A stretch of DNA of 64,000 nt from positions 72,058 through 136,057 of the forward strand of contig CALCIN010000025.1 of the NCBI GenBank assembly GCA_937961055.1, given 5' to 3'. The notes under the pieces are model-generated. The model was not told where the DNA came from. It made no database searches and saw nothing but the letters and a program-made list of their open reading frames with translations. Positions 19,724 through 49,525 of this stretch are shown here, piece by piece. The DNA comes from an uncultured Chitinophagaceae bacterium (lineage in GTDB: Bacteria; Bacteroidota; Bacteroidia; Chitinophagales; Chitinophagaceae). Numbering within the stretch: position 1 is the stretch's first letter; every line of letters starts with the position of its first letter. The position numbers were made by a program, and so were the translations under genes.

Positions 19724-19750
19724 GCAATGATAGTTGTGGGATGGAAGTTT

Positions 19751-20806: not shown

Positions 20807-20816
20807 AAAAAGCAGT

Positions 20817-22172: not shown

Positions 22173-22456
22173 ACAACGTTGATTTAATTTATAATGTCAA
22201 TAATATTTACAGTGTTAAGTTCAGGGGCAAAAAAAATTCCGGAGCGTTTCAGGGTACGTGCTGCGTAGCCATGTTCCAGCAATCAATCAGCAACAGTAAA
22301 AAACAGCAAGGTTCACCAGCACTTCAGTTTTTCAGGGTATTGCGCAGGTCAAAATCATAATTGTTGCTACCTAAGCTTTGAAACGTAAACAGCAGGGAGC
22401 TTCTTCCAAAACTTCAACAACCTGCCCTCACCTTCTCAAAGCTCAAATGCCATACT

Positions 22457-23119
22457 TTACTGCTTCTCCGCTGCAGCTTCCAGCACATTCATCATCCAGT
22501 TCAGCGATTGCTGCATCATGGGCATGATCTGGTCACGTGATACGAGTTTTTCAAAGCGGTCCCGAATGGCCAGCGATACCAACCCATGTACCATCCCCCA
22601 GATGGTCATGGCCACAGCATTGATATCCCCTTTCATGATCAGGTTTTTTTCCATGCATTCGGCAAGGCAATCTTTCAACTTGTTCAGCGCTTCATCCCCA
22701 CTTTTCCATTGGCATTCAATCATATTGTCCAAGGCTTTCATCGGCGCCTGCTGGATGAACATCAAATCATAGAACTGCGGATTTTCCAGGCCAAACCGAA
22801 TATAGTTCTCGCCCATTTTCTGCAGCCGCAACAGCGGGTTCCTGATCTCCCACAACGTAGCATTGTACTCGGCCAGTTTGCGGAAACCCATTTCGTGCAA
22901 CTCAAAAAGGATATCGTTTTTATCCTTGAAATACAGGTATACGGTGGTAGGACTGTATTCAATAAGGTCGGCGATTTTACGTATAGACACCTTCTCGAAC
23001 CCTTCTTCCACAAAGAGTTTCATTGAAGCATCAAGGATTAATTTCCTCACTTCCTGCTTCTGCTTTTCTTTACGTTCTGCTATTCCCATTGGTTCCAGTT
23101 GAGCTGGTGAAAAATTCAA
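22457..23119 (-). CDS. TetR/AcrR-family transcriptional regulator
   Basis: N-terminal HTH (FVEEGFEKVSIRKIADLIEYSPTTVYLYFKDK); upstream of the efflux operon on the same strand. Confidence 0.85.
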   Translation of the reverse strand: MNFSPAQLEPMGIAERKEKQKQEVRKLILDASMKLFVEEGFEKVSIRKIADLIEYSPTTVYLYFKDKNDILFELHEMGFRKLAEYNATLWEIRNPLLRLQKMGENYIRFGLENPQFYDLMFIQQAPMKALDNMIECQWKSGDEALNKLKDCLAECMEKNLIMKGDINAVAMTIWGMVHGLVSLAIRDRFEKLVSRDQIMPMMQQSLNWMMNVLEAAAEKQ

Positions 23120-28534: not shown

Positions 28535-30406
28535 TTAATGCACCGGCGCTTTTTTTTCCACCCGCAACAGGCTCACCTTTCCATCCATTGTAGCAGCTAT
28601 TACACGATTTTTATCCAGCACCTGTACCGTATTCACCATGGAATTATCAATCTTGTGTGCCCATTCCACTTTTTTGCCAACAGGATCGACGGCATATACT
28701 ACACCGCTGCGCGTTCCGAAAAATACCGTTCCTTCTTTTTCTATCAGCATGGAAGGCACATGCTCATACCCAAAGCCAGCATGCAGGTACCAGGCCGGAC
28801 GTTGCGCCACACGACCGGTAGGATAGGCCACAATGGTGTCTTGCATGGTTTTGCCATACACAAATTTTCCATCCTGCGAAATGCCAATCGATTCCCGCAC
28901 ACGGGTTTCATTGTTGCGCCACAAGGTAGCGCCGGTAACGGCATCAATGGCAGAAATATTACGGTCAGGCGCCACCACGTACACCACCCCCTTGTGTGCA
29001 ACAGGAATGCAGGCCGCCGGTGAAAAATGAATTACCGAAGAACCATTATTCCATTTCCATAACAACTTACCGTCATTGCGGTCAAGGGCGTACAGGTGCC
29101 TGTCCCATGCGCCAAAGATTACCATACCGCTATATACCAAAGGCTTGCTTACCACTGCTCCCTGCAATCCGGTAAACTTCCACAACAGGGTCCCATTCTT
29201 CAGGCTCAATGCCATAAAGGAATGATCGCTGCCACCGATAAATACCGTATCGCGAACAATCACTGGTGAGCCCAACACCGCAGCGCCTGTTTTTATTTTC
29301 CAGTTCACCACGCCGCTTTTGGTATTGAGACAATACACATATCCATCACCCGATCCAACCACCACCTTGTCCTGCTGCACGGCAGGCGAAGAAAAGATGC
29401 TGCCGCCCGTTTGATACGACCATTTCTGCTTGCCATCTTTCAGCGACAACGCGGTGATCAACCCGTTCTGGTTGCCAAAGATCACCAGGTTGTTGGTAGC
29501 GGCAGGTGTGGAAATAACATTGGCATCGGAAGCATAGGTCCATTGAGGTTTTACGTGAGCATATTGCTGGTTGATGCTGTAGGATGGCCGCTCAAAATTT
29601 CCTGCAGCAGCGTAGTTATGTTTTTCAACTTTTACACCTGCCCATCTTTTTTCTATTCCGGTACCCGGTTGGCGCTCGGTATACAGGATGCTGTCACTGC
29701 GCACTTCAACAATATTGTAACCACCACTTTTTGCCTTTGCACGCAGATTGGACCTTCCCATAATACCGGGAATGCCTTCAAAGTTCATGACCCGGTTGGC
29801 ATGACCATGTCCGCAGATGGCCAGGATGGTGTGGTATTGTTTCAACCGGTCGATGGCTTCATACCAGTTATCCAGTCCGTTGTCGAGCGGATAATGGTTA
29901 CAGAAAATAATGGGCTGATCTTTGGGTGTTTTGCTGAGTAGGCTATCGAGCCATACAATGGCATCGCGTGGAATATGTCCATCGCTCATGCGCACATATG
30001 GCCCCGATGCACAACCGATAAACCGGACGCCATTATAATCGAAACAAAATTTGTCGTACCCGAATATGCGGATAAAATCAGTGCCTCCGCTTTCACTCCA
30101 ACCTGTATCATGATTGCCGGGAATGATGTAATACTTCACCTGTAAACTATCGAGTATTCTTTTGGCTACTTCGAGTTCGCGCTTGAAACCCAGTTCTGTG
30201 ATATCGCCGGTAATAATTACAAATGCCACATCTTTCAGTTGGTTAATATCCTGAACGGTGCGCCGGAGATCCTCTTCTGCGGAGCCATTGGGAGATCCAA
30301 TATGTGTATCGGTAATATGAATGAACCGAAAAGATTTTTCCTGTGCCTGTAATAAAACACTATACAGGCATACTAACAAGGCGAGTAACTTTTTCATAAG
30401 GTTCAA
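28535..30406 (-). CDS. Secreted fusion protein: calcineurin-like metallophosphoesterase plus PQQ-type beta-propeller repeats
   Basis: Signal peptide; N-terminal GDxHxG…GDITE…GNHD metallophosphoesterase motifs; C-terminal repeated W/G-rich beta-propeller blades. Confidence 0.75.
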   Translation of the reverse strand: MNLMKKLLALLVCLYSVLLQAQEKSFRFIHITDTHIGSPNGSAEEDLRRTVQDINQLKDVAFVIITGDITELGFKRELEVAKRILDSLQVKYYIIPGNHDTGWSESGGTDFIRIFGYDKFCFDYNGVRFIGCASGPYVRMSDGHIPRDAIVWLDSLLSKTPKDQPIIFCNHYPLDNGLDNWYEAIDRLKQYHTILAICGHGHANRVMNFEGIPGIMGRSNLRAKAKSGGYNIVEVRSDSILYTERQPGTGIEKRWAGVKVEKHNYAAAGNFERPSYSINQQYAHVKPQWTYASDANVISTPAATNNLVIFGNQNGLITALSLKDGKQKWSYQTGGSIFSSPAVQQDKVVVGSGDGYVYCLNTKSGVVNWKIKTGAAVLGSPVIVRDTVFIGGSDHSFMALSLKNGTLLWKFTGLQGAVVSKPLVYSGMVIFGAWDRHLYALDRNDGKLLWKWNNGSSVIHFSPAACIPVAHKGVVYVVAPDRNISAIDAVTGATLWRNNETRVRESIGISQDGKFVYGKTMQDTIVAYPTGRVAQRPAWYLHAGFGYEHVPSMLIEKEGTVFFGTRSGVVYAVDPVGKKVEWAHKIDNSMVNTVQVLDKNRVIAATMDGKVSLLRVEKKAPVH

Positions 30407-30601: not shown

Positions 30602-31198
30602 ATGCTATTACTTGATATCAACTCCTGGTGGCAGGGAATGGACCTGTTTGAAAAAATACTATGGGTAATTGCCCTGCTGTTTTCCACGCTGTTTCTTTTT
30701 CAAACTGTTTTTTCATTGGCAGGCGGGAGCGATATGGATGCTCCTGATGCCATTGGCGATGCCGATGATTTTGTAAGTGATGACCAAGGCGTAGGCAGCC
30801 AGTATTTTACCATCAAAAACCTCATTGCCTTTTTCACCATGTTCGGATGGGTAGGCATTGCGGCCTACAACAGCGGACAAAGCAAAGGTGTTGCCATGCT
30901 GCTGGCTGTTGGAGCAGGCTCTGTTATGGTGTTCCTCATGGTGCTGTTGCTGCGCAACGTAAATAAATTACGCTACAGCGGCACCATGCAAATAAAAAAT
31001 GCATTGAACCAGGTGGGCAATGTATATCTGACCATACCTGCACAACGCAAAGGCGCCGGCAAAGTGCATGTAAGCGTACAAGGCTCGCTGCATGAACTGG
31101 ACGCTATTACCGATGATACCACCGACATCAGTACAGGTAGCGTGGTGAAAGTAACCGGAATAGTGGGAGAAAGCGTGTTGCTGGTTAGTAAAGTCTGA
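30602..31198 (+). CDS. NfeD-family membrane protein (partner of a flotillin/SPFH protein)
   Basis: N-terminal TMs plus a C-terminal OB-fold-like region; directly upstream of a flotillin gene. Confidence 0.7.
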   Translation: MLLLDINSWWQGMDLFEKILWVIALLFSTLFLFQTVFSLAGGSDMDAPDAIGDADDFVSDDQGVGSQYFTIKNLIAFFTMFGWVGIAAYNSGQSKGVAMLLAVGAGSVMVFLMVLLLRNVNKLRYSGTMQIKNALNQVGNVYLTIPAQRKGAGKVHVSVQGSLHELDAITDDTTDISTGSVVKVTGIVGESVLLVSKV

Positions 31199-31309
31199 GT
31201 AAGCAATTTCCAGGTAAGATTCAAAACAAGACTTTATTTGGAATTACACCCTTTGCAATTTGTTTTTTTCGATTTGAAAGTTCTCAGCTCAAAAACCCTC
31301 TGATATATT

Positions 31310-32692
31310 ATGGACTACATTGTAATTATTATTGCCGGAGCAGTACTGTTCTTTTTCATACTGATCACGTCTATGTTCCGGCGGTACAAACGCTGTCCGT
31401 CTGACCGCATCCTGGTGGTATACGGTAAGGTGGGTAAAACGGAAGGTGGCGCGCGTACAGCCAAGTGTATTCATGGCGGCGCCGCATTTATCTGGCCGAT
31501 TATCCAGGACTACAGTTTTATGGACCTTACGCCCATTTCCATTGAAGTGGGACTTACCAATGCGCTGAGCCGTCAGAACATCCGCGTTGACGTGCCTTCA
31601 CGATTCACAGTTGCCATTTCTACAGAGCCTGGCGTGATGAACAATGCGGCAGAACGCCTGCTCGGCTTGCAGCGTCAGCAAATCCACGACCTGGCAAAGG
31701 ATATCATTTTTGGTCAGTTGCGCCTGGTAGTAGCTACCATGGACATTGAAGAAATCAACAGCAACCGCGATAAATTCCTGGCCAATGTTGCCAGCAACGT
31801 GGAAGCAGAGTTGAAAAAAATCGGTCTGAAGCTGATCAACGTAAACGTAACAGACATCAAAGATGAAAGCGGTTATATAGAAGCGCTGGGTAAGGAAGCC
31901 GCTGCCAAAGCCATCAACGATGCCCGAAAAAGCGTAGCAGAAAAGAACCGCGACGGTAGTATCGGTGAAGCGCTGGCCATGCAGGAACAACGCGTAAAAG
32001 TGGCCGATGCAGAAGCGATGGCAGTGGAAGGGGAAAACATCGCTAAAGTAAAAGTAGCCAACTCTGAAGCTGCCCGTCGTGAACGTGAGGCAGAAGCAGA
32101 AAAAATTGCCGTAGCTGCCGAAAAGGTGCAGGCCGCTAAAGCCCTCGAAGAAGCCTACCTGGCTGAGAAAAAAGCCGAAGAAGCGCGCGCCGAGCGCGAC
32201 CGTGCCGCACAAAACGCTACCATTGTGGTAGGGGCACAAATACAGAAAGAAAAAGCCATCATTGAAGCGCAGGCCGAAGCAGAGAAAATACGCGAAAGAG
32301 CCCGCGGTGAAGCAGACGCCATTTACGCCAAACTGGAAGCAGAGGCCCGTGGTATGTACGAAATCCTCACCAAGCAGGCAGAAGGCCTGGACAAGATCGT
32401 AAAAGCAGCCGGCAACAACGCCAAAGACGCTGTACTGCTGCTCATCTCCGATAAACTGCCCGAGCTGGTGAAAATGCAAACCGAAGCCATCAAGAATATC
32501 AAGATCGATAAAGTAACGGTGTGGGAAAATGGCCAGAACGGAGACGGTAAAAGCTCTACTGCCAATTTTGTGTCGGGACTGTACAAATCAGTACCGCCAC
32601 TGAAAGATATATTCGATATGGCAGGTATGGATCTGCCGGCTTACCTCGGAAAGCCTAAAGACGGTGGAGAAGGAACACCTGCTGAACAATAA
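31310..32692 (+). CDS. Flotillin-like SPFH/band-7 protein
   Basis: N-terminal TM, SPFH domain, and a long Ala/Glu-rich coiled-coil (EAEAEKIAVAAEKVQAAKALEEA…). Confidence 0.85.
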   Translation: MDYIVIIIAGAVLFFFILITSMFRRYKRCPSDRILVVYGKVGKTEGGARTAKCIHGGAAFIWPIIQDYSFMDLTPISIEVGLTNALSRQNIRVDVPSRFTVAISTEPGVMNNAAERLLGLQRQQIHDLAKDIIFGQLRLVVATMDIEEINSNRDKFLANVASNVEAELKKIGLKLINVNVTDIKDESGYIEALGKEAAAKAINDARKSVAEKNRDGSIGEALAMQEQRVKVADAEAMAVEGENIAKVKVANSEAARREREAEAEKIAVAAEKVQAAKALEEAYLAEKKAEEARAERDRAAQNATIVVGAQIQKEKAIIEAQAEAEKIRERARGEADAIYAKLEAEARGMYEILTKQAEGLDKIVKAAGNNAKDAVLLLISDKLPELVKMQTEAIKNIKIDKVTVWENGQNGDGKSSTANFVSGLYKSVPPLKDIFDMAGMDLPAYLGKPKDGGEGTPAEQ

Positions 32693-32837
32693 CATACTCC
32701 TTTCCATCGCACTGTTGCTTGCGACTATAGAAAAGGGTAGGGATCAATTCCCTGCCCTTTCTTTTTTGGTTAGGAAGGCACTATTTTTTGTTGCAGGCAT
32801 TGGACAGGTTCACATTTGCTAATTTGTATCTTTCAAC

Positions 32838-33698
32838 ATGCACCGCTCCACCATACAACTTCTCCGGCTGCCTTTTTCTTTTTTTCTTATGCCGGTATAC
32901 CTGTTTGCGCTAAGCCTGGTGCCAGACATTCATGCGCTGCATGCCATACTCATTTTCGTTATTCTTCATGGATTGGTTTATCCTTCCAGCAATGGATACA
33001 ATTCGTATATGGACCGCGATGAGACGCCCATCGGCGGTCTTAGTAAACCCATGCAGCCAACGAAAGAATTATTTCGGGTGACCATCCTGCTTGATTTCGT
33101 TGCCGTTGCTGCCGGCTTATTGGTCAGTTACTGGTTTGCTATTTGCATGGTGGCTTACATAGCCGCTTCACGCGCTTACAGTTACCGTGGTATCCGGCTA
33201 AAGAAATATCCTGTAACCGGGTATATCACTGTGATACTGTTCCAGGGAGCATTGACCTTTTTTATGGTGCATCATGGCAGCAGCGTGGATAAGTCAATGC
33301 AGGCGCCATGGCCCGGAATAATGGCGGCAACGCTGCTCATCGGAGGGTTTTATCCGCTCACGCAGATATACCAGCACGAAGCTGATAAGAAAGATGGCGT
33401 ACGCACCATCAGTATGCTGCTGGGTTACCGTGGCACTTTCATTTTCACTGCCATAGTGTATACCCTCGCGATGGGCATATTGGCGTGGCTGTTTATAGCA
33501 AAAGGAGAAGCAGAAAAATTTTTTGTTTTAGCAACCATGATGGTCCCGATACTCGTATACTTTTTTGTTTGGGCGCGCAAAGTGTGGAAGGATGTCCACA
33601 AGGCCGATTTTCACCATGCCATGCGAATGAATATACTGGCCTCCTGTTGCACCAATATGGCTTTCATTATCCTGTTAAGTTGGAGGTGGTTTGAGTAA
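32838..33698 (+). CDS. UbiA-family aromatic prenyltransferase (integral membrane)
   Basis: Multi-TM protein with an Asp-rich NGYNSYMDRDET motif (NxxxDxxxD-like) characteristic of the UbiA superfamily. Confidence 0.7.
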   Translation: MHRSTIQLLRLPFSFFLMPVYLFALSLVPDIHALHAILIFVILHGLVYPSSNGYNSYMDRDETPIGGLSKPMQPTKELFRVTILLDFVAVAAGLLVSYWFAICMVAYIAASRAYSYRGIRLKKYPVTGYITVILFQGALTFFMVHHGSSVDKSMQAPWPGIMAATLLIGGFYPLTQIYQHEADKKDGVRTISMLLGYRGTFIFTAIVYTLAMGILAWLFIAKGEAEKFFVLATMMVPILVYFFVWARKVWKDVHKADFHHAMRMNILASCCTNMAFIILLSWRWFE

Positions 33699-34788
33699 AA
33701 TAGTGTCCATAGGAACGGCTGTGCCTGCCTTCCGGCACCGGCAGCAGGATATTCTTCAGTTTATGCAGGCGGTATATGCTTTCAGCGAACCTGAACGCCG
33801 CAAATTACGCTACCTGTACCATCACAGCGGTATAGAAACACGCTACAGCATTATTCCCGATTATAGCAGACCGTTAGCAGAGTGGAAATTTTATCCGCAA
33901 ACAGAAAACCTGCATCCCTTTCCCTCGCTGGAACAACGGATGATTTGGTACAACAAATATGCAGCCCCCTTATCCATGCAAGCCATACGCAATTGCCTGG
34001 AAGGCCGTATACGTGAAAACAATATTACACACCTCATCACGGTGAGCTGCACGGGCATGAGTGCGCCCGGCCTCGACCTGCAATTGATGGAATTGCTGGG
34101 CCTGCCCAATCATATTTACCGCAGCTCTATCAATTTTATGGGCTGTTATGCCGCCATTCATGCGCTGAAAGTGGCGGATGCTATCTGCGCCATGCATCAC
34201 AACGCGCATGTGCTGATCGTATGCACAGAATTGTGCACGCTTCACTTCCAGCGCGAACCTACTGTTGACAATATCGCTTCCAGTTTGTTATTCGGCGATG
34301 GCAGCGCAGCCGTGCTGGTGACCCATAACGATTATCCGCGGCAGGGCTTGTACCTTGAAGGCTTTTACGCTGAAGTAATTCCCAAAGGGAAAAAAGATAT
34401 GGCCTGGGAACTCAGTTCCTCCGGTTTTTTAATGACGTTGAGCCAATACATTCCCGAACTGCTGCAACAAGATTTTGAAAGTATGATGCACAGGGCATTG
34501 CAATCAGCAGGCATTACGTTGAAAGACATTTCCCATTGGTGCATTCATCCCGGTGGCAAGAGAATACTGGAAGCTGTGCATAAAACACTCCCCTACGCAA
34601 ACGGGCAACTGGATAGTTGTTACGACGTATTGCGTGAGTACGGCAATATGTCGTCGCCCACCATATTGTTTGTATTGAAAAAAATATGGCAATCGCTGAC
34701 GACAAAAAGCAATGCATCGGCAAAAGTGTTTGCCGCAGCTTTTGGCCCCGGGCTTACCATGGAAACATTTGTTGCCACTTGCAGATAA
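33691..34788 (+). CDS. Type III polyketide synthase (chalcone/stilbene synthase fold, alkylresorcinol/alkylpyrone synthase-like)
   Basis: Active-site Cys in MGCYAAIHAL, later His (HPGG) and Asn region; 365 aa. Confidence 0.8.
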   Translation: MSKIVSIGTAVPAFRHRQQDILQFMQAVYAFSEPERRKLRYLYHHSGIETRYSIIPDYSRPLAEWKFYPQTENLHPFPSLEQRMIWYNKYAAPLSMQAIRNCLEGRIRENNITHLITVSCTGMSAPGLDLQLMELLGLPNHIYRSSINFMGCYAAIHALKVADAICAMHHNAHVLIVCTELCTLHFQREPTVDNIASSLLFGDGSAAVLVTHNDYPRQGLYLEGFYAEVIPKGKKDMAWELSSSGFLMTLSQYIPELLQQDFESMMHRALQSAGITLKDISHWCIHPGGKRILEAVHKTLPYANGQLDSCYDVLREYGNMSSPTILFVLKKIWQSLTTKSNASAKVFAAAFGPGLTMETFVATCR

Positions 34789-34860
34789 GTGCTGAATGCA
34801 ATGGGTAAACCGCAAGAATAGCAGGCAATGCTTTAATGGTACACGCAACAGCCATCATAA

Positions 34861-35559
34861 TTGCAGACTGTGGATTTTTCTACCCGCTCATACCAGCAGG
34901 AACTACTCGACCGCGATGATATTCCATACGAAGACATCAGGCGGAACATGCAGGAATTAAATATCATCAATACCTGGCTGGGTGGTCACGCCATCACGCT
35001 GCGGGGCATTAGGGCGTTTGTGCATAACAAAAGCAACCTGGTCATCTGCGAAATCGGCTGTGGTGGCGGCGACAATCTTGCCGCCATCGCGCGCTGGTGC
35101 AGGCGTTGCGGTATAGCCGCCCATTTCATTGGCATTGATCACAACCCGTATTGCATTGCAGTAGCAAAAGAGCGCCTGCACAACGTCAATGCACGTTTCT
35201 TCACAGCCGACTACCGGCAGGTACATTTTGATGAGCCGCCCGACATCATTTTCTCTTCCTTGTTCTGTCATCACTTTACCGAGACAGCATTGGTAAGCCA
35301 GTTGCAATGGATGCAACAACAGGCGCGCCTCGGCTTTTTTATCAATGATCTGCACCGGCACCCGGTGGCCTATTATGCCATACGCTGGCTCACCGCCGCT
35401 TTTTCCCGCAGTTACCTGGTAAAACATGATGCGCCCTTATCGGTATTGAGGGGATTTACAAGAAAGGAATGGCAAATGCTATTACATAAAGCAGGAATCG
35501 GTACCTTTTCTGTACGATGGCAATGGGCGTTCCGATGGCTGGTGACGGCGGAGCGATAA
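34861..35559 (+). CDS. Class I SAM-dependent methyltransferase
   Basis: Motif I ICEIGCGGGDN, 232 aa. Confidence 0.75.
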   Translation: MQTVDFSTRSYQQELLDRDDIPYEDIRRNMQELNIINTWLGGHAITLRGIRAFVHNKSNLVICEIGCGGGDNLAAIARWCRRCGIAAHFIGIDHNPYCIAVAKERLHNVNARFFTADYRQVHFDEPPDIIFSSLFCHHFTETALVSQLQWMQQQARLGFFINDLHRHPVAYYAIRWLTAAFSRSYLVKHDAPLSVLRGFTRKEWQMLLHKAGIGTFSVRWQWAFRWLVTAER

Positions 35560-35649
35560 AGCAGGTTGCACAATAGACACATAATGAGCAGCAGTTGCCT
35601 TATTTCCATATAACAATGTAACAGCCCAATAGTATTACTTTACAGACAC

Positions 35650-36789
35650 TTGAACACCGATGCACGATACGACGTAGCCATTATTGGCGGCGGCCTTGCG
35701 GGGCTGGCGCTGTCTATACAGTGCGCCCGGGCAGGGTTCAGGACCATTGTGTACGAACGCGAGCATTACCCGTTTCACAAGGTGTGCGGTGAATATATCA
35801 GTCTCGAAAGCTGGAATTTTTTGCAGGACCTCGGCGTACCCCTCAGTGATATGCAGTTACCGGTGATCAACCGGCTGATGGTTACAGCGCCCAACGGAAA
35901 TTCCCTGGAAAGCAGGTTGCCCCTGGGAGGTTTCGGCATCAGTCGTTATACCCTCGATCACCTGCTGGCGCAACTGGCCGTGCAGGAAGGCGTAACCCTG
36001 CTCGAAAATACCAAGGTAACCAATGTGGTATATCGCAATAATACGTTCATCATATTCACCAACAATGGCGAAACAGAAGCCATCGTTGCAGCCGGCGCCT
36101 ATGGCAAAAGGGCTAACCTCGATGTAAAATGGAAACGCCATTTTACGCAGGTAAAACCCAACAAACTGAACCATCATGTAGGCGTGAAATACCATATTCG
36201 GTTTCCACATCCTGCAGACCTCATCGCCTTACACAATTTTGAGAACGGTTATTGCGGTATTTCCCGGATAGAAGACAACAAATGTTGCCTTTGCTATCTC
36301 ACCACGGCGGGCAATCTCCGGAAAAGTAAAAATGATATTGCCACCATGGAAAATACCATCCTGAGAAAAAATCCCTGGCTGGATAAAATTTTCTCCGGCA
36401 TGGAATGCCTGTATAAAGAACCACTCACCATTTCGCGAATAAGCTTCAATAAAAAAACGCAGGTGGAAAATCATGTATTGATGATTGGTGATACGGCAGG
36501 CATGATCACCCCACTGTGCGGCAATGGCATGAGTATGGCATTACATAGCAGCAAACTGGCTTTTGAAGAAATCCGCTCCTTTCTGAGCGCGGCCATCAAC
36601 CGCTTTGAAATGGAGCTTCAGTATACGCAGCAATGGGAAAAGCATTTCGGGCGCAGAATGCAAACCGGCCGTATGATCCAGTATTTTTTTGGAAGTCCCG
36701 TATTGTCAGATTTCCTGGTACGTTCGGTGAAACCTTTTCCCCGCCTGGTATCGTACCTGATTGGTCAAACACACGGAAAACCTTTTTAA
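35650..36789 (+). CDS. FAD-dependent oxidoreductase, geranylgeranyl reductase family
   Basis: DVAIIGGGLAGLAL dinucleotide fold, KVCGEYIS (PCGG-like) and IGDTAGMITPLCGNGMSMAL (GDAAG…P.TGEGI) motifs. Confidence 0.75.
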   Translation: MNTDARYDVAIIGGGLAGLALSIQCARAGFRTIVYEREHYPFHKVCGEYISLESWNFLQDLGVPLSDMQLPVINRLMVTAPNGNSLESRLPLGGFGISRYTLDHLLAQLAVQEGVTLLENTKVTNVVYRNNTFIIFTNNGETEAIVAAGAYGKRANLDVKWKRHFTQVKPNKLNHHVGVKYHIRFPHPADLIALHNFENGYCGISRIEDNKCCLCYLTTAGNLRKSKNDIATMENTILRKNPWLDKIFSGMECLYKEPLTISRISFNKKTQVENHVLMIGDTAGMITPLCGNGMSMALHSSKLAFEEIRSFLSAAINRFEMELQYTQQWEKHFGRRMQTGRMIQYFFGSPVLSDFLVRSVKPFPRLVSYLIGQTHGKPF

Positions 36790-36792
36790 AAG

Positions 36793-38229
36793 ATGACTAT
36801 GCGCGTACCCTGCATATTCATACTCCTGGTGGCGAGCCTGCAAACGGCAGCACAACATTACTCCGCTGTGCATGGCTCACCCTATGCAGGCAGCCTGGGC
36901 GTAGGAAACAATCCTGCTGCTATCGTGCATAATCCTCATGCATGGGACCTTACCATTTTGGGTTTCCAGGAAAAACATACCACCAATGCGGTCACCGTTT
37001 ACAATTACTCCCTGTTGTCGTCGCCGGGGCAGTCGGAATACCTTTTCAATGCAGGCAACTATGCCCGTTTTGCGCATGTCAATTTCAACCTCAATATGCT
37101 GAACGGCCGGTTTGCCATTAACCGGCAGCAGGCCATTGCATTCGGCATCAATATCCGCGGCTATGGCAACATAAAAACGGGCCCCTATCATTTTGTCGAT
37201 ACCGTTGAAAGCAGTCGCGAATTCTTTTCTCTGGGGAACAGCACCGTTCGCCTGCGGGGTGATTTTACCGGCAGCAGCTGGCTGGAACTTTTTGGCACGT
37301 ATGCACAAACCATGTGGGACGGCACCTTCGACCGGCTCAATGCCGGCGTTACATTGAAAATTTCCCGCGCGCTGGCCGGTGCCCATGTGGCGCTCAGCAA
37401 TGCACATGCAGCAAGGATTGGTCATGGCGCCGGCCAATATTACGAATACACATCAGGGTCAGGTGTGTATGGGTACTCCGCTAACTTTGACCAATGGCAG
37501 GACAACAAAAATTCTTCGCAGAATATCAAGGACTTTATAAGCGCCGGCAGCTATGGATTCTCTGTCGATTTTGGCGCAGAATACCTCATCAAATCCGGCG
37601 CCATCACCGCCTGGGATGAAGACGATTATTACGATTACAAATGGAAAATTGGCGTAGCACTGCTCGATCTCGGGTTCAACAGATTTCAATACGGCCGGCA
37701 CAGTCGTACAGTAAGCGGTGTGCGTCCCAATATGGCCGACACGTTGTTTGATGAGAAATGGGAAGGCGTGGAAGATTTTGCTTCGTTTAACGACAGCCTG
37801 GCCACCATTGTAAACAATATGCAACCATTACAGGGCAGGTTTACGGTAATCAATCCCACCCGCCTGGTGATCAATGCAGACCGTCACCTGTCTGGTGATT
37901 TTTATGTAAATGCCGACCTTACGATCAATCTTTCTTCCCTCACAGGTCATCCTTATCGGGTAACCGAAGCCAACCTGCTTACCATTATACCCCGCTGGGA
38001 AACGCGCACGCTCGGTTTCTTTCTACCGGTACTGGTAAATATAGAAGGAAAATGGTGGATAGGCGGCGCATTCAAAGCCGGACCACTGCTGCTGGGCGTG
38101 CACAACTGGGGCAATGTATTTTCCAAAAACAAAATGCAGAACGGCGGCGGATACCTGGCATTGGTGATTCGCCCGGGCAGGCAGGCGGCAAGGGATAGGC
38201 ATTTAAAACAATATGAATGCCCGGAGTAA
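36793..38229 (+). CDS. Hypothetical secreted/outer-membrane protein, co-transcribed with the PKS cluster
   Basis: Signal peptide MTMRVPCIFILLVASLQTAAQ; 478 aa, Gly/aromatic-rich with beta-barrel-like character; start only 3 bp after the upstream stop. Confidence 0.6.
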   Translation: MTMRVPCIFILLVASLQTAAQHYSAVHGSPYAGSLGVGNNPAAIVHNPHAWDLTILGFQEKHTTNAVTVYNYSLLSSPGQSEYLFNAGNYARFAHVNFNLNMLNGRFAINRQQAIAFGINIRGYGNIKTGPYHFVDTVESSREFFSLGNSTVRLRGDFTGSSWLELFGTYAQTMWDGTFDRLNAGVTLKISRALAGAHVALSNAHAARIGHGAGQYYEYTSGSGVYGYSANFDQWQDNKNSSQNIKDFISAGSYGFSVDFGAEYLIKSGAITAWDEDDYYDYKWKIGVALLDLGFNRFQYGRHSRTVSGVRPNMADTLFDEKWEGVEDFASFNDSLATIVNNMQPLQGRFTVINPTRLVINADRHLSGDFYVNADLTINLSSLTGHPYRVTEANLLTIIPRWETRTLGFFLPVLVNIEGKWWIGGAFKAGPLLLGVHNWGNVFSKNKMQNGGGYLALVIRPGRQAARDRHLKQYECPE

Positions 38230-38242
38230 CCTGTAAAAATGA

Positions 38243-38272
38243 AAAGTCCGGAAGCAGACACTTCCGGACTTT
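38243..38272. terminator. Bidirectional terminator hairpin (aagtccggaag / cttccggactt) between convergent genes
   Basis: 11-bp perfect stem; T-rich flank on the minus strand (ttcatttttacag). Confidence 0.6.
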
Positions 38273-42688: not shown

Positions 42689-43453
42689 TCAATTAGGCAT
42701 CGTAGTAACACTCCCTGCCCATTCTTTTCTCGGTATTTCGGGCTTGGGTTGCTGCCAGAGGCGGGAAAATAACTGACGCAGTGTTTGCGCAGCCGTTTTG
42801 CGGATAATGCGCATGTCTAACCAGAAGCTGGCATTGCGCACATAAAAACTATCAAACTGGTAACGATGAAAGATACTTGCAAAATCTTTGGTAGGGCCCC
42901 GGTAACCTTTGATCTGTGCCAGACCGGTAATACCCGGACGAACAAGATTCCTGAATTTATAATTGGCAATCACACGTGAAAATCTGTCGCAGTCGGCATG
43001 CATATGTGGCCGCGGTCCTACAATACTCATGTGTCCCAACAACACGTTGATGAACTGTGGAAATTCGTCAAGATTGGATTTGCGCAAAAATTTACCCACA
43101 CCCGTAATGCGGCTATCGTTCTCCTGGGCCTGCTGGATATTCGCCCTTTCATTCACCACCATGGTCCGAAACTTCAGGCAATAGAAACTTTTTCCCCACC
43201 GGCCAACACGACGCTGAACAAAAAATACGGGCCCGCGGGAATCCAGTTTAATCAAAATGGCAACAATGGGAATTAACCAGCTTAAAATGAAAACGATTAC
43301 AAAAGTTGATAAGATAATATCACCAACTCTTTTGAAAAAGAAATATTTGCGTTTCTTTTCCAAAAATGATCGCAAGCACAGGGTTTCATCGGCAAATTTA
43401 CCTTTTTCATTACTGAAATACTGGATTTTAGAAAAGGACGAAGTTATCATCAT
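42689..43453 (-). CDS. Polyprenyl-phosphate sugar phosphotransferase (bacterial sugar transferase, WbaP/WcaJ C-terminal type), the initiating enzyme
   Basis: …LDEFPQFINVLLGHMSIVGPRP… motif, N-terminal TM. Confidence 0.85.
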   Translation of the reverse strand: MMITSSFSKIQYFSNEKGKFADETLCLRSFLEKKRKYFFFKRVGDIILSTFVIVFILSWLIPIVAILIKLDSRGPVFFVQRRVGRWGKSFYCLKFRTMVVNERANIQQAQENDSRITGVGKFLRKSNLDEFPQFINVLLGHMSIVGPRPHMHADCDRFSRVIANYKFRNLVRPGITGLAQIKGYRGPTKDFASIFHRYQFDSFYVRNASFWLDMRIIRKTAAQTLRQLFSRLWQQPKPEIPRKEWAGSVTTMPN

Positions 43454-43748
43454 CTCATTTTAATCTTTACCCTTTCCTATTCATACAAGAAAGGGGCCAT
43501 TCATAAAATAATACCTCTGGGTAACGCAACGCCTGTCTGACAGACTGCAAAGAAAACGCCTTTTATCAATACATATATGCTGCCAGATTAGTTTTTTCAA
43601 AAAAAATTAACACACATATTGGCGTAAACGTTAATGTCTTAAGTTGACATTGTGATAGTTAGATTCGTTGCTTACGCCAAAAACATTTTTTTCCAACGTA
43701 ATAACGACATATTGCTCCCCGGATTGTCATGTTTGCAGCATAACATGC

Positions 43749-44978
43749 CTATATTTCTAAAATTTTTTTGTTTTTACGTATGGCAGTGGGAGAATGATAA
43801 TAAAAAAGAAGCATAAAAAACAGGAAAAAAACAAGCTCCTGTTGCACTTCAAACGTTGATTCCACCAAAGATATTATCATAAAATGCAACAGCACCAGCA
43901 TCAATAATAGATTACGGTTGCGTATGGCATATATAAAAACCATCATAAGAATAGTCAGTAAAAACCCTAATCCGACCACTCCGCCCATCAGTGCAGTCTG
44001 AAGGTACTGGTTATGCGAATGATAAGCCTCCTGTACACCCAGGTCAAAACCTTTTTCTCCATATTTCTGCATTAATGGCTTATGCCATCCTTTAACGCCA
44101 TACCCCAGCAATGGTCGCTCGGCAATAAGTTCCGACGCAGATTCCCACATGAGTATACGTGAGGCCAGCCCGTTTTGATTGTCTTCAGCACTTTGATATT
44201 GCTTCCACTCGGTTACGGAAAACCGCCACTTGAGAAAATAGAGATTATTCACGGCAATAATCGTAGCGCCGGCTATAACACCTACAATAACGATGGCAAG
44301 CACCGGCTGGTTTACCTTCACCCACACAATGTACCACGTAAAACACACCAACGTAATGATCAGCAGAAATACGAGCATCTTACTCGACAACAACAACATG
44401 ATGAACGCAAGGAAACACACCCACAGCAGTGTGAAAATGCCCGAGGATTTTTTTTGTGCATCCGGAGGGTCAACAAAACCGAAATACAACAACCATATAA
44501 TGCTCTGAAGCGAATAATGAGATAAAAATATCGCATTCAGGTCCATCTGCTGCGATAAATAGTGGTAAAAGAAAAGCCGGGAATCGCCGGTTTGCTGGTA
44601 ATCTATGAACGACTTGACCAGGCAAATGACGGCAATTACGCTTACCGTAATGGCAAATACCCTGCAAACCTGCCGTACCACCTGGCCGGAGAGCTTTGCC
44701 CAGGAGATAATAAATGGCAACACCAGGAAACTGGCATATCCTTCGAGGTTTTTAAAGGAATACCCTCCGCTGGCATCCCAGAACCACGTTAGGGCCAGCC
44801 ATACAAAATAGGCGGCACTTACTACAGCCAGCCGGGAAATGGGCAATTTGCTGCCAATAGCCTGTATCAGAACGATCCCGCACAATAAAGCGATAGTCCA
44901 GCTGTTTATATTATTGTGCAATGGTATGGTAACCGTTACCCCAAAAGTGGCAATTCTCAATAACCAGGATCGATTCAT
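43749..44978 (-). CDS. O-antigen ligase / Wzy-family membrane protein
   Basis: Multi-TM protein with a periplasmic loop GYGVKGWHKP…HSHNQYLQ typical of the O-antigen ligase domain. Confidence 0.7.
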   Translation of the reverse strand: MNRSWLLRIATFGVTVTIPLHNNINSWTIALLCGIVLIQAIGSKLPISRLAVVSAAYFVWLALTWFWDASGGYSFKNLEGYASFLVLPFIISWAKLSGQVVRQVCRVFAITVSVIAVICLVKSFIDYQQTGDSRLFFYHYLSQQMDLNAIFLSHYSLQSIIWLLYFGFVDPPDAQKKSSGIFTLLWVCFLAFIMLLLSSKMLVFLLIITLVCFTWYIVWVKVNQPVLAIVIVGVIAGATIIAVNNLYFLKWRFSVTEWKQYQSAEDNQNGLASRILMWESASELIAERPLLGYGVKGWHKPLMQKYGEKGFDLGVQEAYHSHNQYLQTALMGGVVGLGFLLTILMMVFIYAIRNRNLLLMLVLLHFMIISLVESTFEVQQELVFFLFFMLLFYYHSPTAIRKNKKILEI

Positions 44979-45207
44979 GAATAATTGTTGTTCTACGATT
45001 GCAATTGCTCAAAGGAACTGCCCTTGCACGCCGCAAGGTACGGTATTAATGATTATGATTACGGAACGATGCCGGCCGTGGCATCGCCAGCGCAGTATTA
45101 AAAACATCATTCATGCAACGTAAAAACTACAGTTGCGGTCAAGTCGGAAACTATTCTATTTTTGTGGCCGCCAATTTTTTAACATATATCAAAAAATAAA
45201 CACTTTC

Positions 45208-46170
45208 ATGAAGGTATTAGTTACGGGTGGCGCCGGATTCATTGGTTCCAACATTGTTGAAAAACTCCTGCAGTTGAAAAATATTGAAGTGGTTCGCGTG
45301 GTAGACAACCTCGAAACCGGCTCCAGAAACAATATCAGCCAGTTTCTGAACGACCCCAGATTTGAATTTGAAGAAGCAGATATCCGGAATTTTGATACCT
45401 GTCGCAAAGTGTCAGCCGGCATGGATGCCATTCTCCACCAGGCAGCATTGGGCTCCGTACCCCGGTCGGTACAAAACCCGATCGCTACCAATGAGTTTAA
45501 TATAACCGGCACACTGAACGTTTTCTTTGCGGCTAAAGAAAACAGGATTGGAAAGGTGGTGTTCGCCTCCTCCTCTTCTACCTATGGCAGCAATACCGAC
45601 CTGCCCAAAATTGAAGACAAAATCGGCGACCCGCTCTCTCCCTACGCTGTAACCAAACTGGTAAACGAATTATATGCAAAGGTATTTTCCCGGCTATATG
45701 ATTTCCGCTATATAGGCTTCCGGTATTTCAATGTATTTGGGCCCCGGCAAAGCCCTAAAGGTCCCTATGCAGCCGTTATTCCCATTTTCTTTGCTGAAAT
45801 GCTGGCCGGCCGCTCCCCGGTTATCAACGGCAACGGTGAACAAAGCCGCGATTTCACTTATGTTGAAAATGTGGTGGATATCAACATCAGCACCTTATTC
45901 AACGATAATCCCTCCAGTTGGAACCAGATCTATAACGTGGCCTTTGGCGCAAAAACCTCACTGAATCAATTATATAACTATATCGCGCGTCTTACCGGCC
46001 ATACCGGGAAACCCGTGTACGGCCCCGAGAGAATGGGCGATATTAAAGACAGCCTGGCAGATATTTCCAAAGCCAGACAATTGCTGAATTACAATCCGGC
46101 CATTTCCATTGAGGAAGGGTTGAAAAAAACCTACGACTGGTTTCTGAGCCATCAACACGCTGTAAAATAA
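45208..46170 (+). CDS. NAD-dependent sugar epimerase/dehydratase (SDR, UDP-sugar 4-epimerase-like)
   Basis: VLVTGGAGFIGSN Rossmann motif and YAVTK catalytic YxxxK; start chosen at the internal Met. Confidence 0.8.
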   Translation: MKVLVTGGAGFIGSNIVEKLLQLKNIEVVRVVDNLETGSRNNISQFLNDPRFEFEEADIRNFDTCRKVSAGMDAILHQAALGSVPRSVQNPIATNEFNITGTLNVFFAAKENRIGKVVFASSSSTYGSNTDLPKIEDKIGDPLSPYAVTKLVNELYAKVFSRLYDFRYIGFRYFNVFGPRQSPKGPYAAVIPIFFAEMLAGRSPVINGNGEQSRDFTYVENVVDINISTLFNDNPSSWNQIYNVAFGAKTSLNQLYNYIARLTGHTGKPVYGPERMGDIKDSLADISKARQLLNYNPAISIEEGLKKTYDWFLSHQHAVK

Positions 46171-46211
46171 TTTCAATACCGGCTGCACCATAAGGTGCAC
46201 CTACTTTTAGT

Positions 46212-46973
46212 ATGGATGATCGTTTGCATATCATCAGTCTCCCGGTAAATCAGATCTCATTCCGGGAAAGCCTTGACCGTATATGTGCATGGGGACTGGA
46301 ACGCCGGTCAGGCTTTGTTTGCTTTGCCAATGTGCACATGATCATTGAAGCGCATACCAATGCCACCTTCAATAACCTGTTGCGCAAGGCCGCGTTGGTA
46401 TTGCCCGATGGCCAACCTCTTGCGCTCGCCTGCAGGTGGCTGTACCGCAAAAAACAGGAAAGGATTTCCGGTATGGACTTCATGCCTGCCCTGCTGCAGG
46501 AAGCCCACCGGTTAAAGGCCCGCGTTTTTTTATACGGCTCCACGGAAACAGTGCTGGAGCAACTGATCAGGAAAATTGAAACTACCTACCCTGGTGTGCA
46601 GGTGGCCGGCGCCATCTCTCCCCCTTTCCGGCCTCTCAGCCAGGAAGAGTTGAATGATCATATAGACCAGATTAACCGCTCCGGAGCCAATTTTGTATTG
46701 GTGGCGCTCGGTTGCCCAAAACAGGAAACCTGGATGGCCCTCCATTCTGAAAAACTGCACGCGGTGTTGCTCGGATTGGGCGGGGCATTTCCCGTTACGG
46801 CAGGACTGCAAAAAAGAGCACCCGTATGGATGCAACGCGCCGCCCTGGAATGGCTGCACCGCTTGCTGCAGGAACCGGGCAGATTGTTTAAACGCTATCT
46901 CTATACCAACTTATACTTCATAGTGCTCCTGGTAAAAGCAATTTTCAGGAAAAGAAAATATCGGTTACCGTAG
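46212..46973 (+). CDS. WecB/TagA/CpsF-family glycosyltransferase (GT26)
   Basis: 253 aa; conserved layout resembles N-acetylmannosaminyltransferases. Confidence 0.75.
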   Translation: MDDRLHIISLPVNQISFRESLDRICAWGLERRSGFVCFANVHMIIEAHTNATFNNLLRKAALVLPDGQPLALACRWLYRKKQERISGMDFMPALLQEAHRLKARVFLYGSTETVLEQLIRKIETTYPGVQVAGAISPPFRPLSQEELNDHIDQINRSGANFVLVALGCPKQETWMALHSEKLHAVLLGLGGAFPVTAGLQKRAPVWMQRAALEWLHRLLQEPGRLFKRYLYTNLYFIVLLVKAIFRKRKYRLP

Positions 46974-47086
46974 TGAGGGCATGAATATCAATACAACTGA
47001 AGGTGTTGCCGGGCATGCCCTTTGCGCACAGGTCTTTCCCGAACGGATTCACCTCAAACAAGCCACTACGCGATGCACGAATTACA

Positions 47087-48397
47087 TCATGACTTCTGTT
47101 GCCGGGCGTTAACAGCAATAATACCTTCACTCAACTTAATGAGCAGGATGATCAGGGCAACAATTTCCGGGTACTCCATATAATTGTCAATGACAAGCAG
47201 CAATACCAGCAGGATGGTAAGAAATTTTATCATGCCGCCCGCAACATTCAACTGCACAGTAGGAACAGCCCTGGCAACACGCAGCATCGATCGGCGGTAA
47301 TTGGCCGCTATTACCCACCCAATAAAAACGGTAACGATTATGCCATACTCGCCCAGCAACGCCAGTAGGGAAGAAAATGGCTGGCTCATAAAGCCGTCAT
47401 ACCAGGTGATCACCGAAGGATTCCACAGGGGATAAGCTTCTGTAGCAAAATAGTATGGCTGCACCGCGCTTTTGATAAATGATACATTAAAATAAGTAGG
47501 GCTGCCCACCATAAAAGCGGAACGGCTGTTGAATGTACCCGGCCCGGAACCAAACAGGAGGTCCACGGGCTGATGGGAATACGCCTGATAATAATTTTTG
47601 AAAATGGCCAGCTTGCGCGGCATATCCTGCCCGGTGGTGAGGCCCTTCCAGAATTTTTTGAGAATATTCATATTATACTCCAGCACCCGGTCGCTCACCA
47701 CATTCATCAGTACATACAACGCCACCACCCCAATGCCGAAAATCAATCCAAAACGAATCACATTTTTCAGCGAGGGTTTAAACAGGTAAATAGCCAGCGT
47801 GGCCATGAACACCATGAGACCTGCGCCATAAAAACTCATGATGGAGCAAACCACGAAAAATATACTCAGCACCAAATACCATTTCTCTTTTACCTGCCGC
47901 CACAACAGGAAGTAGTAAAAAAATAAAATGCTGTTTATAATGGAAAGGCCATTCTGTGAAACGGTAAAAGTGCCATAAAAGCCTTCAAAACTGTCGTCAT
48001 GCTTCAGGCGGGCATATTGAAACATACCCAGTATGTTATTCGCCACCATAATGATGGAAAGCGCTACTATAAAACGATGCAGGTGCTGCGACTGTCCTGC
48101 TACCGGTTTCGGTGATGCGCAGAGCAACAGGATCAGGGGAACGACATAGTACAAACTCACCAGGTTGTAAGAAAGATAAAATCCATGACGCCAGGAGAAC
48201 AACCAAACAATACCTACGGCCGCCAATAAATACAATGCATCGAAATGCAGGCGCCAACGGAATACAAAAAACAATATAACCGTCAATACCGGGTACAACA
48301 ATAAGAATGACACCCTGAATACAGTAGCAAATATCAGGGTAAGCATCACCAGGATGAAATCCATCAGGTGAATCTTTGGGTTGATCGGTATTCCCAT
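47087..48397 (-). CDS. Polytopic membrane protein, putative oligosaccharide repeat-unit polymerase (Wzy-like)
   Basis: ~12 predicted TM segments, no soluble-domain motifs; located inside the polysaccharide locus. Confidence 0.5.
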   Translation of the reverse strand: MGIPINPKIHLMDFILVMLTLIFATVFRVSFLLLYPVLTVILFFVFRWRLHFDALYLLAAVGIVWLFSWRHGFYLSYNLVSLYYVVPLILLLCASPKPVAGQSQHLHRFIVALSIIMVANNILGMFQYARLKHDDSFEGFYGTFTVSQNGLSIINSILFFYYFLLWRQVKEKWYLVLSIFFVVCSIMSFYGAGLMVFMATLAIYLFKPSLKNVIRFGLIFGIGVVALYVLMNVVSDRVLEYNMNILKKFWKGLTTGQDMPRKLAIFKNYYQAYSHQPVDLLFGSGPGTFNSRSAFMVGSPTYFNVSFIKSAVQPYYFATEAYPLWNPSVITWYDGFMSQPFSSLLALLGEYGIIVTVFIGWVIAANYRRSMLRVARAVPTVQLNVAGGMIKFLTILLVLLLVIDNYMEYPEIVALIILLIKLSEGIIAVNARQQKS

Positions 48398-48412
48398 TGC
48401 AATGATCAGTGT

Positions 48413-49525
48413 CTATTCATGTAGTACCGCTGAAAAAACAGCTTGCATATTGCGTTCAAACTGGTCCAGTGTAAATGCCTCAAAGAATTTCTTTCTGGCA
48501 GCCGCCCCCAGCGCCACTCTTCTCTCGGGATCTTTCAGCAAAGCAGCAATAGCATCGGCCAGCGCCGCCGCATCCTGCGGCGGTACCAGTATTCCGTTGG
48601 TATTATGGTCTATCATTTCGGGTATGGACCCTTCGGTGGTGGAAATGATCGGTCTGCCAAACTGCATGGCTTCCAGCAATACCCCGGGAAACAATTCAAA
48701 ATAAGTAGGGAAAACAAATATATCAGCCTCCGACAGTATTTTCCATTTGTCTTCGCCATATTTTGGTCCCGTTACGGTTACTATATCAGCCAGTCCCTTT
48801 TCCCGCAACAGGCGGTTCAGGTCTTCATATGAAATGTCCAGTTCCTTACCCGTTATAAAAGCTTTGAAGCCCACAGGTCCGTTTTTCAGCATATGCAACG
48901 CTTCTACCAGTTCGTAAATGCCTTTCGTGCGCATCAGGTTCGATAAAAACAACAGGGTAGGCGTTTCACGCTCGGTGCCGGTATAGGCTGGCAATGTCAG
49001 CGCCTGCGGCTCTACCTTAATGCCATTGGGCACAATGAACGGGGTACGGCTGGTATATCCCTGCATGTCTTCCAGGTGATGCCTGCTCAGGCACACGATA
49101 TGGCTGTTGCGAAATGCATATCGTACCAATACGCGACCCAACCCGTGGCGCACGGTCCGGCGGATGCCCTTTACCCTGAAATGCAGCAACACCTTTTTAC
49201 CAAACAGCTTCAGCAGGCTGATGAAGAGCATATCACGATAAAAAGCAAAGCCCGCGGGGCTCATGGTGAAATAAGCCAAATCAATTCTTCGTGTACACAA
49301 TGCCTTTAGCAACCTGGCACCATACACCAGGGTTATGCCCAGTTTTTTAAAAGAGAAACGGCCAATATCTTTCAGTTCATCTACAAACTGCAGAGGGAGA
49401 ACGCACACGTTAAAATGACTGTTGATGACCTCACTTTCCACCAGCGACTTGTTCCTTAACGCTGCGCCATGCACCGGAGGAGGCAGTTGCACCATAAACA
49501 ATATGTTCCCCTCCTTTTTATTCAT
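48413..49525 (-). CDS. Glycosyltransferase family 4 (GT-B, retaining)
   Basis: EX7E motif (ELFPGVLLEAMQFGRP). Confidence 0.8.
   Translation of the reverse strand: MNKKEGNILFMVQLPPPVHGAALRNKSLVESEVINSHFNVCVLPLQFVDELKDIGRFSFKKLGITLVYGARLLKALCTRRIDLAYFTMSPAGFAFYRDMLFISLLKLFGKKVLLHFRVKGIRRTVRHGLGRVLVRYAFRNSHIVCLSRHHLEDMQGYTSRTPFIVPNGIKVEPQALTLPAYTGTERETPTLLFLSNLMRTKGIYELVEALHMLKNGPVGFKAFITGKELDISYEDLNRLLREKGLADIVTVTGPKYGEDKWKILSEADIFVFPTYFELFPGVLLEAMQFGRPIISTTEGSIPEMIDHNTNGILVPPQDAAALADAIAALLKDPERRVALGAAARKKFFEAFTLDQFERNMQAVFSAVLHE

Follow-up and report, generated by a model that had tools for sequence, protein, structure and literature searches.

By analogy, the agqABCD cluster of Actinoplanes missouriensis is probably the closest precedent, and the best model, for the pathway considered here, which appears to be encoded by five adjacent genes of an uncultured Chitinophagaceae bacterium (phylum Bacteroidota). 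The genes lie in a 64,000-nucleotide stretch of contig CALCIN010000025.1 (assembly GCA_937961055.1, positions 72,058 to 136,057), referred to below as the window. In order, they encode a UbiA-superfamily membrane prenyltransferase (UbiA), a type III polyketide synthase (PKS), a class I S-adenosylmethionine (SAM)-dependent methyltransferase (MT), a flavoprotein dependent on flavin adenine dinucleotide (FAD) and an outer-membrane protein (gene 5). In the agq literature, the type III PKS AgqA acts together with AgqB-D, the UbiA-like membrane protein AgqD catalyzes O-prenylation of an alkyl-methoxyhydroquinone (PMC7692728; PMC4044012; PMC3227686), and the products, alkyl-O-dihydrogeranyl-methoxyhydroquinones, carry a dihydrogeranyl chain (PMC7692728; PMC3227686). 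Clusters similar to agq have been noted in Micromonospora. The small agq cluster holds the same four enzyme classes as the window operon, namely a type III PKS, a flavoprotein oxygenase, a methyltransferase and a membrane UbiA-like prenyltransferase. It belongs to Actinomycetota and has no outer-membrane component, whereas the window operon belongs to Bacteroidota. For AgqB and AgqC we assume roles taken from secondary citations and the product name. The agq products were reportedly described by Awakawa et al. in 2011 (ChemBioChem 12:439).

A second precedent is the hid-type module of PKS, methyltransferase and flavoprotein. HidC and the PKSs from planctomycete trio operons make alkylresorcinols, and recombinant HidA O-methylates an alkylresorcinol (PMC10896814; PMC6836626). 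HidB is the proposed, unproven, ring hydroxylase that gives hierridin B (PMC10896814; PMC8086630; PMC6836626). The hid and planctomycete operons share with the window operon the proposed logic of alkylresorcinol formation, methylation and then ring hydroxylation. Hid-type operons have no prenyltransferase, except for a single Raphidiopsis cluster noted as unique (PMC8086630). Their usual gene order is MT-FAD-PKS, whereas the window has UbiA-PKS-MT-FAD; the PKS-MT-FAD part of the latter is common to Alphaproteobacteria, Deinococcus and a hidC>hidA>hidB variant. The srsABC operon of Streptomyces griseus and the pkqABC operons of Mycobacterium smegmatis and Streptomyces also have the order PKS, methyltransferase, oxidoreductase or hydroxylase. 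Their products are methoxy-alkyl-benzoquinones that serve as alternate respiratory electron carriers in actinobacteria. However, srs and pkq operons are devoid of UbiA, and SrsB is described as an ICMT-type membrane methyltransferase (PMC6669644), whereas the window MT matches only class I SAM-methyltransferase Pfam families and is predicted to be soluble. As a result, the srs and window trios appear at least partly analogous and not homologous. The initial annotation of this locus had placed it within the logic of the srs, ars and hid pathways. The closest precedents are agqABCD and the hid/planctomycete module, not srs or ars.

The arrangement UbiA-PKS-MT-FAD is a conserved operon of the Chitinophagales. 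A PKS-anchored scan was performed with one genome per species, and the best 80 of at least 598 relatives were analyzed. All 80 loci are from Chitinophagales, with PKS identities of 50-71%. Gene presence was counted over the assessable loci among these 80. UbiA lies directly 5' of the PKS in 73 of 76 loci, the MT is 3' of the PKS in 77 of 77, and the flavoprotein is 3' of the MT in 68 of 68, while gene 5 directly follows the flavoprotein in 12 of 65. The four core genes are collinear and share one strand, and their alignment-end gaps have medians of 12-17 bp; between UbiA and the PKS, the median distance is 14 bp and the minimum is -4 bp. The flanks vary from locus to locus, and the flotillin gene found upstream in the window occurs there in only 2 of the 80 loci. 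The recurrence of this arrangement is far beyond chance, and the operon is conserved in no fewer than 70 Chitinophagales species from soil and water. A reciprocal scan from UbiA recovered the same order in Paraflavitalea soli, Niastella sp. OAS944 and GCA_016850125, in each of which an open reading frame (ORF) of the size of gene 5 comes next after the flavoprotein gene. Three Chitinophagales loci carry the PKS-MT-FAD trio alone, with a sensor protein in the place of UbiA. The window sequence is identical to contigs from several metagenome assemblies, and among named organisms it is closest to Niastella, Paraflavitalea and Longitalea.

The PKS-MT-flavoprotein trio is, as judged by sequence comparison, homologous to a widespread hid-like alkylresorcinol module. 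Without a UbiA gene, PKS, MT and flavoprotein genes are neighbors on plasmids or chromids of the Alphaproteobacteria Mesorhizobium, Paracoccus, Roseomonas, Sphingobium and Novosphingobium. The UbiA-less trio is also present in Deinococcus and the gammaproteobacterium Psychrobacter, and in the planctomycete Paludisphaera it has the hid order MT-FAD-PKS. Across trio operons, the PKSs are 33-41% identical in pairwise comparison (35-41% for the window PKS against trio operons of four other phyla), and the MTs are related with profile E-values of 7e-18 to 2e-52. The FAD proteins match with profile E-values of 5e-17 to 1e-40, the Deinococcus protein only weakly (5e-8, no pairwise match). Between the window and Paludisphaera, in both of which the three genes are adjacent, identities are 33% for the PKS, 27% for the MT and 22% for the FAD protein (profile E-values 5e-29 and 1e-22), and blastp E-values are 1e-65, 1e-22 and 7e-17, respectively. 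The link to HidA, HidB and HidC of Cyanobium runs by transitivity through the planctomycete operon, which is reported to be 48-55% identical to Hid (PMC10896814). The surroundings of the trio differ among these bacteria. In Deinococcus radiodurans (locus L094, 4989-10702), a glycosyltransferase and a PLD-like protein follow PKS-MT-FAD. In Novosphingobium and Sphingobium (loci L007 and L011), an acyl carrier protein and a ketosynthase are encoded directly 5' of the PKS and may provide it with dedicated starters.

The operon probably makes a methylated, hydroxylated and prenylated membrane lipid of the alkylresorcinol type. The type III PKS would extend a long-chain fatty acyl thioester with malonyl-CoA and cyclize it to a 5-alkylresorcinol or, less likely, to an alkylpyrone. 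The class I SAM methyltransferase would then methylate the ring, and the FAD enzyme would hydroxylate it to give an alkyl-methoxy-hydroquinone that could be oxidized to a quinone. The membrane UbiA enzyme would add a prenyl group from a housekeeping prenyl diphosphate, attached through oxygen, in the manner of AgqD, or directly to a carbon atom of the ring. In this lineage, the FadL-fold barrel encoded by gene 5 may carry the hydrophobic product into or across the outer membrane. We infer the chemical steps, their order, the regiochemistry and the prenyl chain length; what the analysis itself shows is the gene content, the protein families, catalytic motifs and folds, the homology of the trio to operons of five other phyla, and the co-conservation. 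The 64-kb window contains no prenyl-diphosphate synthase or acyl-activating gene; therefore, the substrates must come from primary metabolism.

The flavoprotein carries a GxGxxG motif, and the initial annotation took it for a prenyl reductase with geranylgeranyl reductase (GGR) motifs. Its full-length best NCBIfam match is TIGR02032 of the GGR superfamily, at 92.8 bits against a cutoff of 158.8, and the BchP-ChlP model gives 60.7 bits against 343. For motif comparison, a Thermoplasma GGR sequence was validated against structure 3oz2 (395 of 396 residues identical) and then aligned to the flavoprotein family. Two motifs are in place. C46 aligns with Cys47 of 3oz2 (VRCGEGLS vs KVCGEYIS) and is invariant in 24 members, and GDxAxxxxPxxGxG is conserved. 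In GGR structures, Cys47 within xCGE/G is the active-site cysteine of the Thermoplasma acidophilum enzyme. The third motif, YxWxFP, is missing, with GYIWVFP of the Thermoplasma GGR aligning to GYCGISR. By these comparisons, the motif observation of the initial annotation is correct, but the protein falls short of GGR family membership both in its score and in one of the defining motifs. The flavoprotein family comprises 492 clusters at 50% identity (E <= 1e-30). The top matches of its profile are flavin-dependent halogenases (E 1e-29), ahead of FixC and archaeal GGR (about 1e-20; GGR 3e-20), with QhpG next. A halogenase function was considered and rejected. Flavin-dependent halogenases are defined by WxWxIP and a catalytic lysine, but in the alignment GWxWxIP falls on GGYCGxS and nothing corresponds to the lysine region KxGxxFxWG. 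According to a review, hierridin C is chlorinated and its producer has no known halogenase; a link to the halogenase-like match of the flavoprotein would be speculative.

Since the flavoprotein scores below the GGR cutoff, has no YxWxFP and occurs independently of a prenyltransferase, it is more likely a ring hydroxylase, and we lean towards one of the HidB type. Its independence is seen in the UbiA-less PKS-MT-FAD trios of several other phyla and in the three UbiA-less Chitinophagales loci. A 43%-identical paralogue adjoins an isonitrile synthase and a TauD/TfdA dioxygenase on plasmid pHsw1 of Hymenobacter swuensis (locus L005, 2123-7137), a context that suggests that the family also tailors tyrosine-derived isonitrile phenolics. 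It is unlikely, though the best of the alternatives, that the enzyme is instead a GGR-type reductase that saturates the UbiA-installed prenyl chain to give a tail like that of tocopherol or phylloquinone, with ring hydroxylation absent or performed elsewhere. The best NCBIfam match being TIGR02032 over the full length, the alignment of the Cys47 motif with the invariant KVCGEY, the conserved GDxAxxxxPxxGxG and the reduced (dihydrogeranyl) chain of the agq product all speak for such a reductase; the study of agq is said to have left the reductase for this chain unassigned. The sub-cutoff score, the replacement of YxWxFP by GYCGISR, the closer match of the family profile to halogenases than to GGR, the prenyltransferase-less operons and the phenolic, not isoprenoid, context of the paralogue all speak against it. 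The tocopherol and phylloquinone pathways (homogentisate phytyltransferase and ChlP) resemble the window operon in combining a UbiA enzyme that prenylates a phenolic head with a flavoprotein of the GGR superfamily. They differ from it in both enzymes, as the homogentisate phytyltransferase (HPT) and ChlG models score far below their cutoffs on the window UbiA (26 bits vs 226 and 24.5 vs 313), and the flavoprotein departs from GGR in the ways just described. Because the prenyl-reductase role is unsupported, the logic of prenylation followed by saturation, which the initial annotation borrowed from these pathways, is left without its second enzyme.

The first enzyme of the proposed pathway is unambiguously predicted to be a true type III PKS and not a FabH-type KAS III. 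Chal_sti_synt_N and Chal_sti_synt_C match at 91.1 and 89.4 bits (cutoff 27), whereas FabH models reach 35-64 bits against cutoffs of 249-437. The Cys152/His286/Asn319 triad, which had been read from the sequence as resembling that of chalcone synthase, aligns with the triad of Steely1 and is invariant in 13 sequences, including alphaproteobacterial ones. The best solved matches are Steely1, a brown-alga PKS and Pks18 (E about 1e-41 to 1e-37). A Trp at position 281 of ArsB, where the pyrone former ArsC has Gly284, has been reported to mark resorcinol formers. In the window PKS, the invariant W239 corresponds to ArsC position 285, give or take a few residues, as estimated from the alignment ranges of a 130-amino acid fragment against the Protein Data Bank (PDB; ArsC, 3vs9). 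It thus lies at the ArsC Gly284/ArsB Trp281 position or one residue off, and the mapping is ambiguous. This ambiguity favors a second alternative, in which the PKS makes an alkylpyrone and the MT, flavoprotein and UbiA decorate the pyrone, or UbiA uses another acceptor. Pyrones are common products of bacterial type III PKSs of this size, the best solved matches include Pks18, and some homologues are named "alkylresorcinol/alkylpyrone synthase" by JGI. Nevertheless, we hold a pyrone to be quite improbable, as the tested PKSs of homologous MT-FAD-PKS operons give alkylresorcinols (PMC10896814), W239 lies at or next to the diagnostic position, and a hydroquinone or quinone outcome requires an aromatic ring.

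The prenyltransferase belongs to the UbiA superfamily and is, by its scores, not a housekeeping MenA or UbiA. It matches PF01040 at 61.5 bits (cutoff 34.2), has a multi-helix UbiA fold and carries two Asp-rich motifs, NSxMDRD (55-61) and YQHxxDxxDG (178-187), that are at least 95% conserved in 196 homologues. No NCBIfam equivalog cutoff is reached; the best score is 38 bits, for PRK12884 (cutoff 269), and MenA models give 17-22 bits against cutoffs of 277-555. The family profile matches only ApUbiA (1e-3) and AfUbiA (0.03) in the PDB. A tblastn search of UbiA and gene 5 against 72,556 plasmids gave no match. The gene sits beside a type III PKS together with a methyltransferase and a flavoprotein, the setting expected of an AgqD-type O-prenyltransferase. 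In Paraflavitalea soli (locus L095, 5182-6644) and GCA_016850125 (locus L097, 5444-6906), a UbiE-type (quinone C-) methyltransferase and an OMP_b-brl_2 protein are encoded divergently beside UbiA. That UbiA is a housekeeping quinone or lipid prenyltransferase, syntenic with the hid-like trio and functionally unrelated to it, might be read from these UbiE-type neighbors, from its JGI name (1,4-dihydroxy-2-naphthoate octaprenyltransferase) and from the three trios that have no UbiA, but it is very improbable given the MenA scores, the 8-bp overlap with the PKS gene and the short distances to it elsewhere, the retention of UbiA in nearly all assessable loci despite differing flanks, and the absence of other men or ubi genes from the 64-kb window. 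The expectation that UbiA is co-conserved with the PKS outside menaquinone biosynthesis is thus borne out, both in the 80 loci and in the three reciprocal genomes.

The MT is predicted to be a class I SAM methyltransferase (Methyltransf_25, E 3e-12; PRK06202, 131 bits) and resembles HidA. It has no match in the PDB, so structure gives no clue to whether oxygen or carbon is methylated, and the name O-methyltransferase used in the initial annotation is tentative. C-methylation was the apparent activity of a planctomycete homologue (PMC10896814). Public gene calls for the window organism miss this gene and place an antisense 156-amino acid ORF (34957-35427, minus strand) in its stead. The MT sequence is absent from a collection of 15 billion proteins that does contain its four neighbors, each from 18-47 contigs. 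Other genomes do not preserve the antisense frame: their loci have a median stop-free stretch of 87 codons, compared with 159 here. Orthologous MTs are called normally in cultured genomes.

Gene 5 encodes a protein with a signal peptide, and its structure model is an outer-membrane beta-barrel with a 14-strand FadL fold. The initial annotation had included it as a full member of the cluster. The outer-membrane assignment agrees with the model, whereas the counts given above show that gene 5 is not a core member but a lineage-specific accessory. Its detectable homologues number 794, most of them from the Niastella/Paraflavitalea/Longitalea/Puia clade and on the same contigs as PKS and UbiA matches. 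The model is equally close to PorV (21.6) and BamG (20.0). FadL/TodX channels are similar in signal peptide and fold, but gene 5 has no sequence match to current Pfam families. A precomputed annotation assigns it to PF18990 (DUF5723), and a current Pfam scan matches no family even at E <= 10; the PF18990 model may have been withdrawn or changed. On the strength of the modeled fold, the natural reading is that gene 5 would be a channel for the hydrophobic product. The gene-5-sized ORF of the three complete genomes (loci L095-L097) is in each case followed by genes for TonB_C-domain proteins and a MarR regulator. Where gene 5 is absent (L012-L091), a small CoA_binding_2 protein lies directly after the flavoprotein in 28 loci, on the same strand in 27. 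Other recurrent genes at this place encode an RNaseH_like protein (23 loci), a MarR regulator (15) and an unannotated secreted protein of 154 amino acids (15).

Several points weigh against the proposed pathway. The likeness to agq is one of functional class by description and not of demonstrated orthology. A HidB-type hydroxylase role has only been proposed, and a co-expressed planctomycete homologue gave no hydroxylated product (PMC10896814). The flavoprotein retains the active-site cysteine motif of GGR, which is compatible with reductase chemistry, and the PKS sequence does not decide between resorcinol and pyrone. The UbiA protein is very distant from all characterized members, with a best PDB E-value of 1e-3. 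Gene 5 is missing from most loci, and its fold is common to PorV and BamG, which are not lipid transporters.

The five genes form a discrete biosynthetic operon, and the ORF check of the window reproduced the arrangement first described: all five ORFs are co-directional, with an 8-bp overlap between UbiA and the PKS followed by gaps of 72, 90 and 3 bp. The overlap suggests that UbiA and PKS are translationally coupled. Upstream lies a flotillin/Band_7 gene and downstream a convergent gene for an fn3 protein with a type IX secretion system (T9SS) C-terminal sorting domain, as had been noted, and hairpins mark both ends of the unit (Table 1). The GC content is level throughout the region and hence gives no sign of recent transfer. 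The TAATTTG box upstream of UbiA is called a promoter by inference only, from TAnnTTTG, which we take to be the Bacteroidota -7 consensus. Three of the five genes (PKS, MT and FAD; window 33680-33693, 34861 and 35650) have apparent TTG starts. The GGAGG of the PKS start is a Shine-Dalgarno-like element located inside the end of the UbiA gene; such signals are unusual in Bacteroidota.

Table 1. Features of the operon and its boundaries (positions in the window)
Feature	Position	Strand	Remarks
Terminator-like hairpin, 12-bp stem and T-run	32732..32760	+	3' of flotillin gene; upstream operon boundary
Candidate Bacteroidota-type -7 promoter box TAATTTG	32820..32826	+	11 nt 5' of UbiA ATG
UbiA-superfamily membrane prenyltransferase, 286 aa, divergent subfamily	32838..33698	+	ATG start; 8-bp overlap with PKS start
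Type III polyketide synthase, 365 aa	33691..34788	+	TTG start, GGAGG just 5'
Class I SAM-dependent methyltransferase (MT), 232 aa, HidA-like	34861..35559	+	TTG or GTG start
FAD-dependent oxidoreductase, 379 aa, GGR/halogenase-like superfamily, HidB-like; putative ring hydroxylase	35650..36789	+	
Gene 5, DUF5723 protein, 478 aa; signal peptide and predicted FadL-fold 14-strand barrel; lineage-specific accessory	36793..38229	+	
Hairpin, 13-bp stem	38243..38272	.	In 65-bp convergent gap between gene 5 and T9SS-cargo gene; downstream boundary

Elsewhere in the window lie polysaccharide genes, an RND efflux operon and genes of housekeeping function. The efflux operon (16691-23119, minus strand) is TetR-regulated and encodes OEP, HlyD and AcrB. 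A metallophosphoesterase fused to a PQQ-type beta-propeller is encoded at 28535-30406 (minus strand), and an unannotated membrane protein paired with flotillin at 30602-32692 (plus strand). A large polysaccharide/O-antigen cluster (42689-59622) includes Bac_transf, Wzy_C, several GT4 proteins, WecG, an Asn synthase and a MurJ-like flippase.

The literature search found no characterization of a UbiA-PKS-MT-FAD cluster in Bacteroidota, where type III PKS regions appear in the literature only as orphan antiSMASH matches with no similar known cluster. The earlier statement that the combination is uncharacterized in this phylum therefore stands for Bacteroidota; the combination itself has a characterized analogue in agqABCD. 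The novelty is a hid-like module combined with agq-like prenylation in a new phylum, with an optional outer-membrane channel; in other words, an uncharacterized Bacteroidota version of a known logic. The pathway would add a prenyl anchor to the hid-like module and link the agq and hid/polyketide-quinone pathways in a Gram-negative phylum. The retention of the four-gene core in different genera, at 50-71% identity, would fit a membrane lipid with a physiological role better than an antibiotic of sporadic occurrence. A more specific proposal, which we regard as possible but doubtful, is that the product is a prenylated methoxy-alkyl-benzoquinone or hydroquinone whose ring comes from a type III PKS instead of chorismate, homogentisate or 1,4-dihydroxy-2-naphthoate (DHNA). 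It would be a standing membrane redox carrier or antioxidant across Chitinophagales, with a FadL-like channel to the outer membrane in one lineage. Chitinophagales are abundant in soil, rhizosphere and freshwater, and the cultured carriers Niastella, Paraflavitalea, Longitalea, Segetibacter, Cnuella and Pinibacter make the pathway directly testable. If redox-active, the product bears on the question of polyketide quinones supplementing menaquinone. If the more specific proposal is true, the polyketide quinones of actinobacteria would have a prenyl-anchored counterpart in Bacteroidota, a phylum believed to depend solely on menaquinone.

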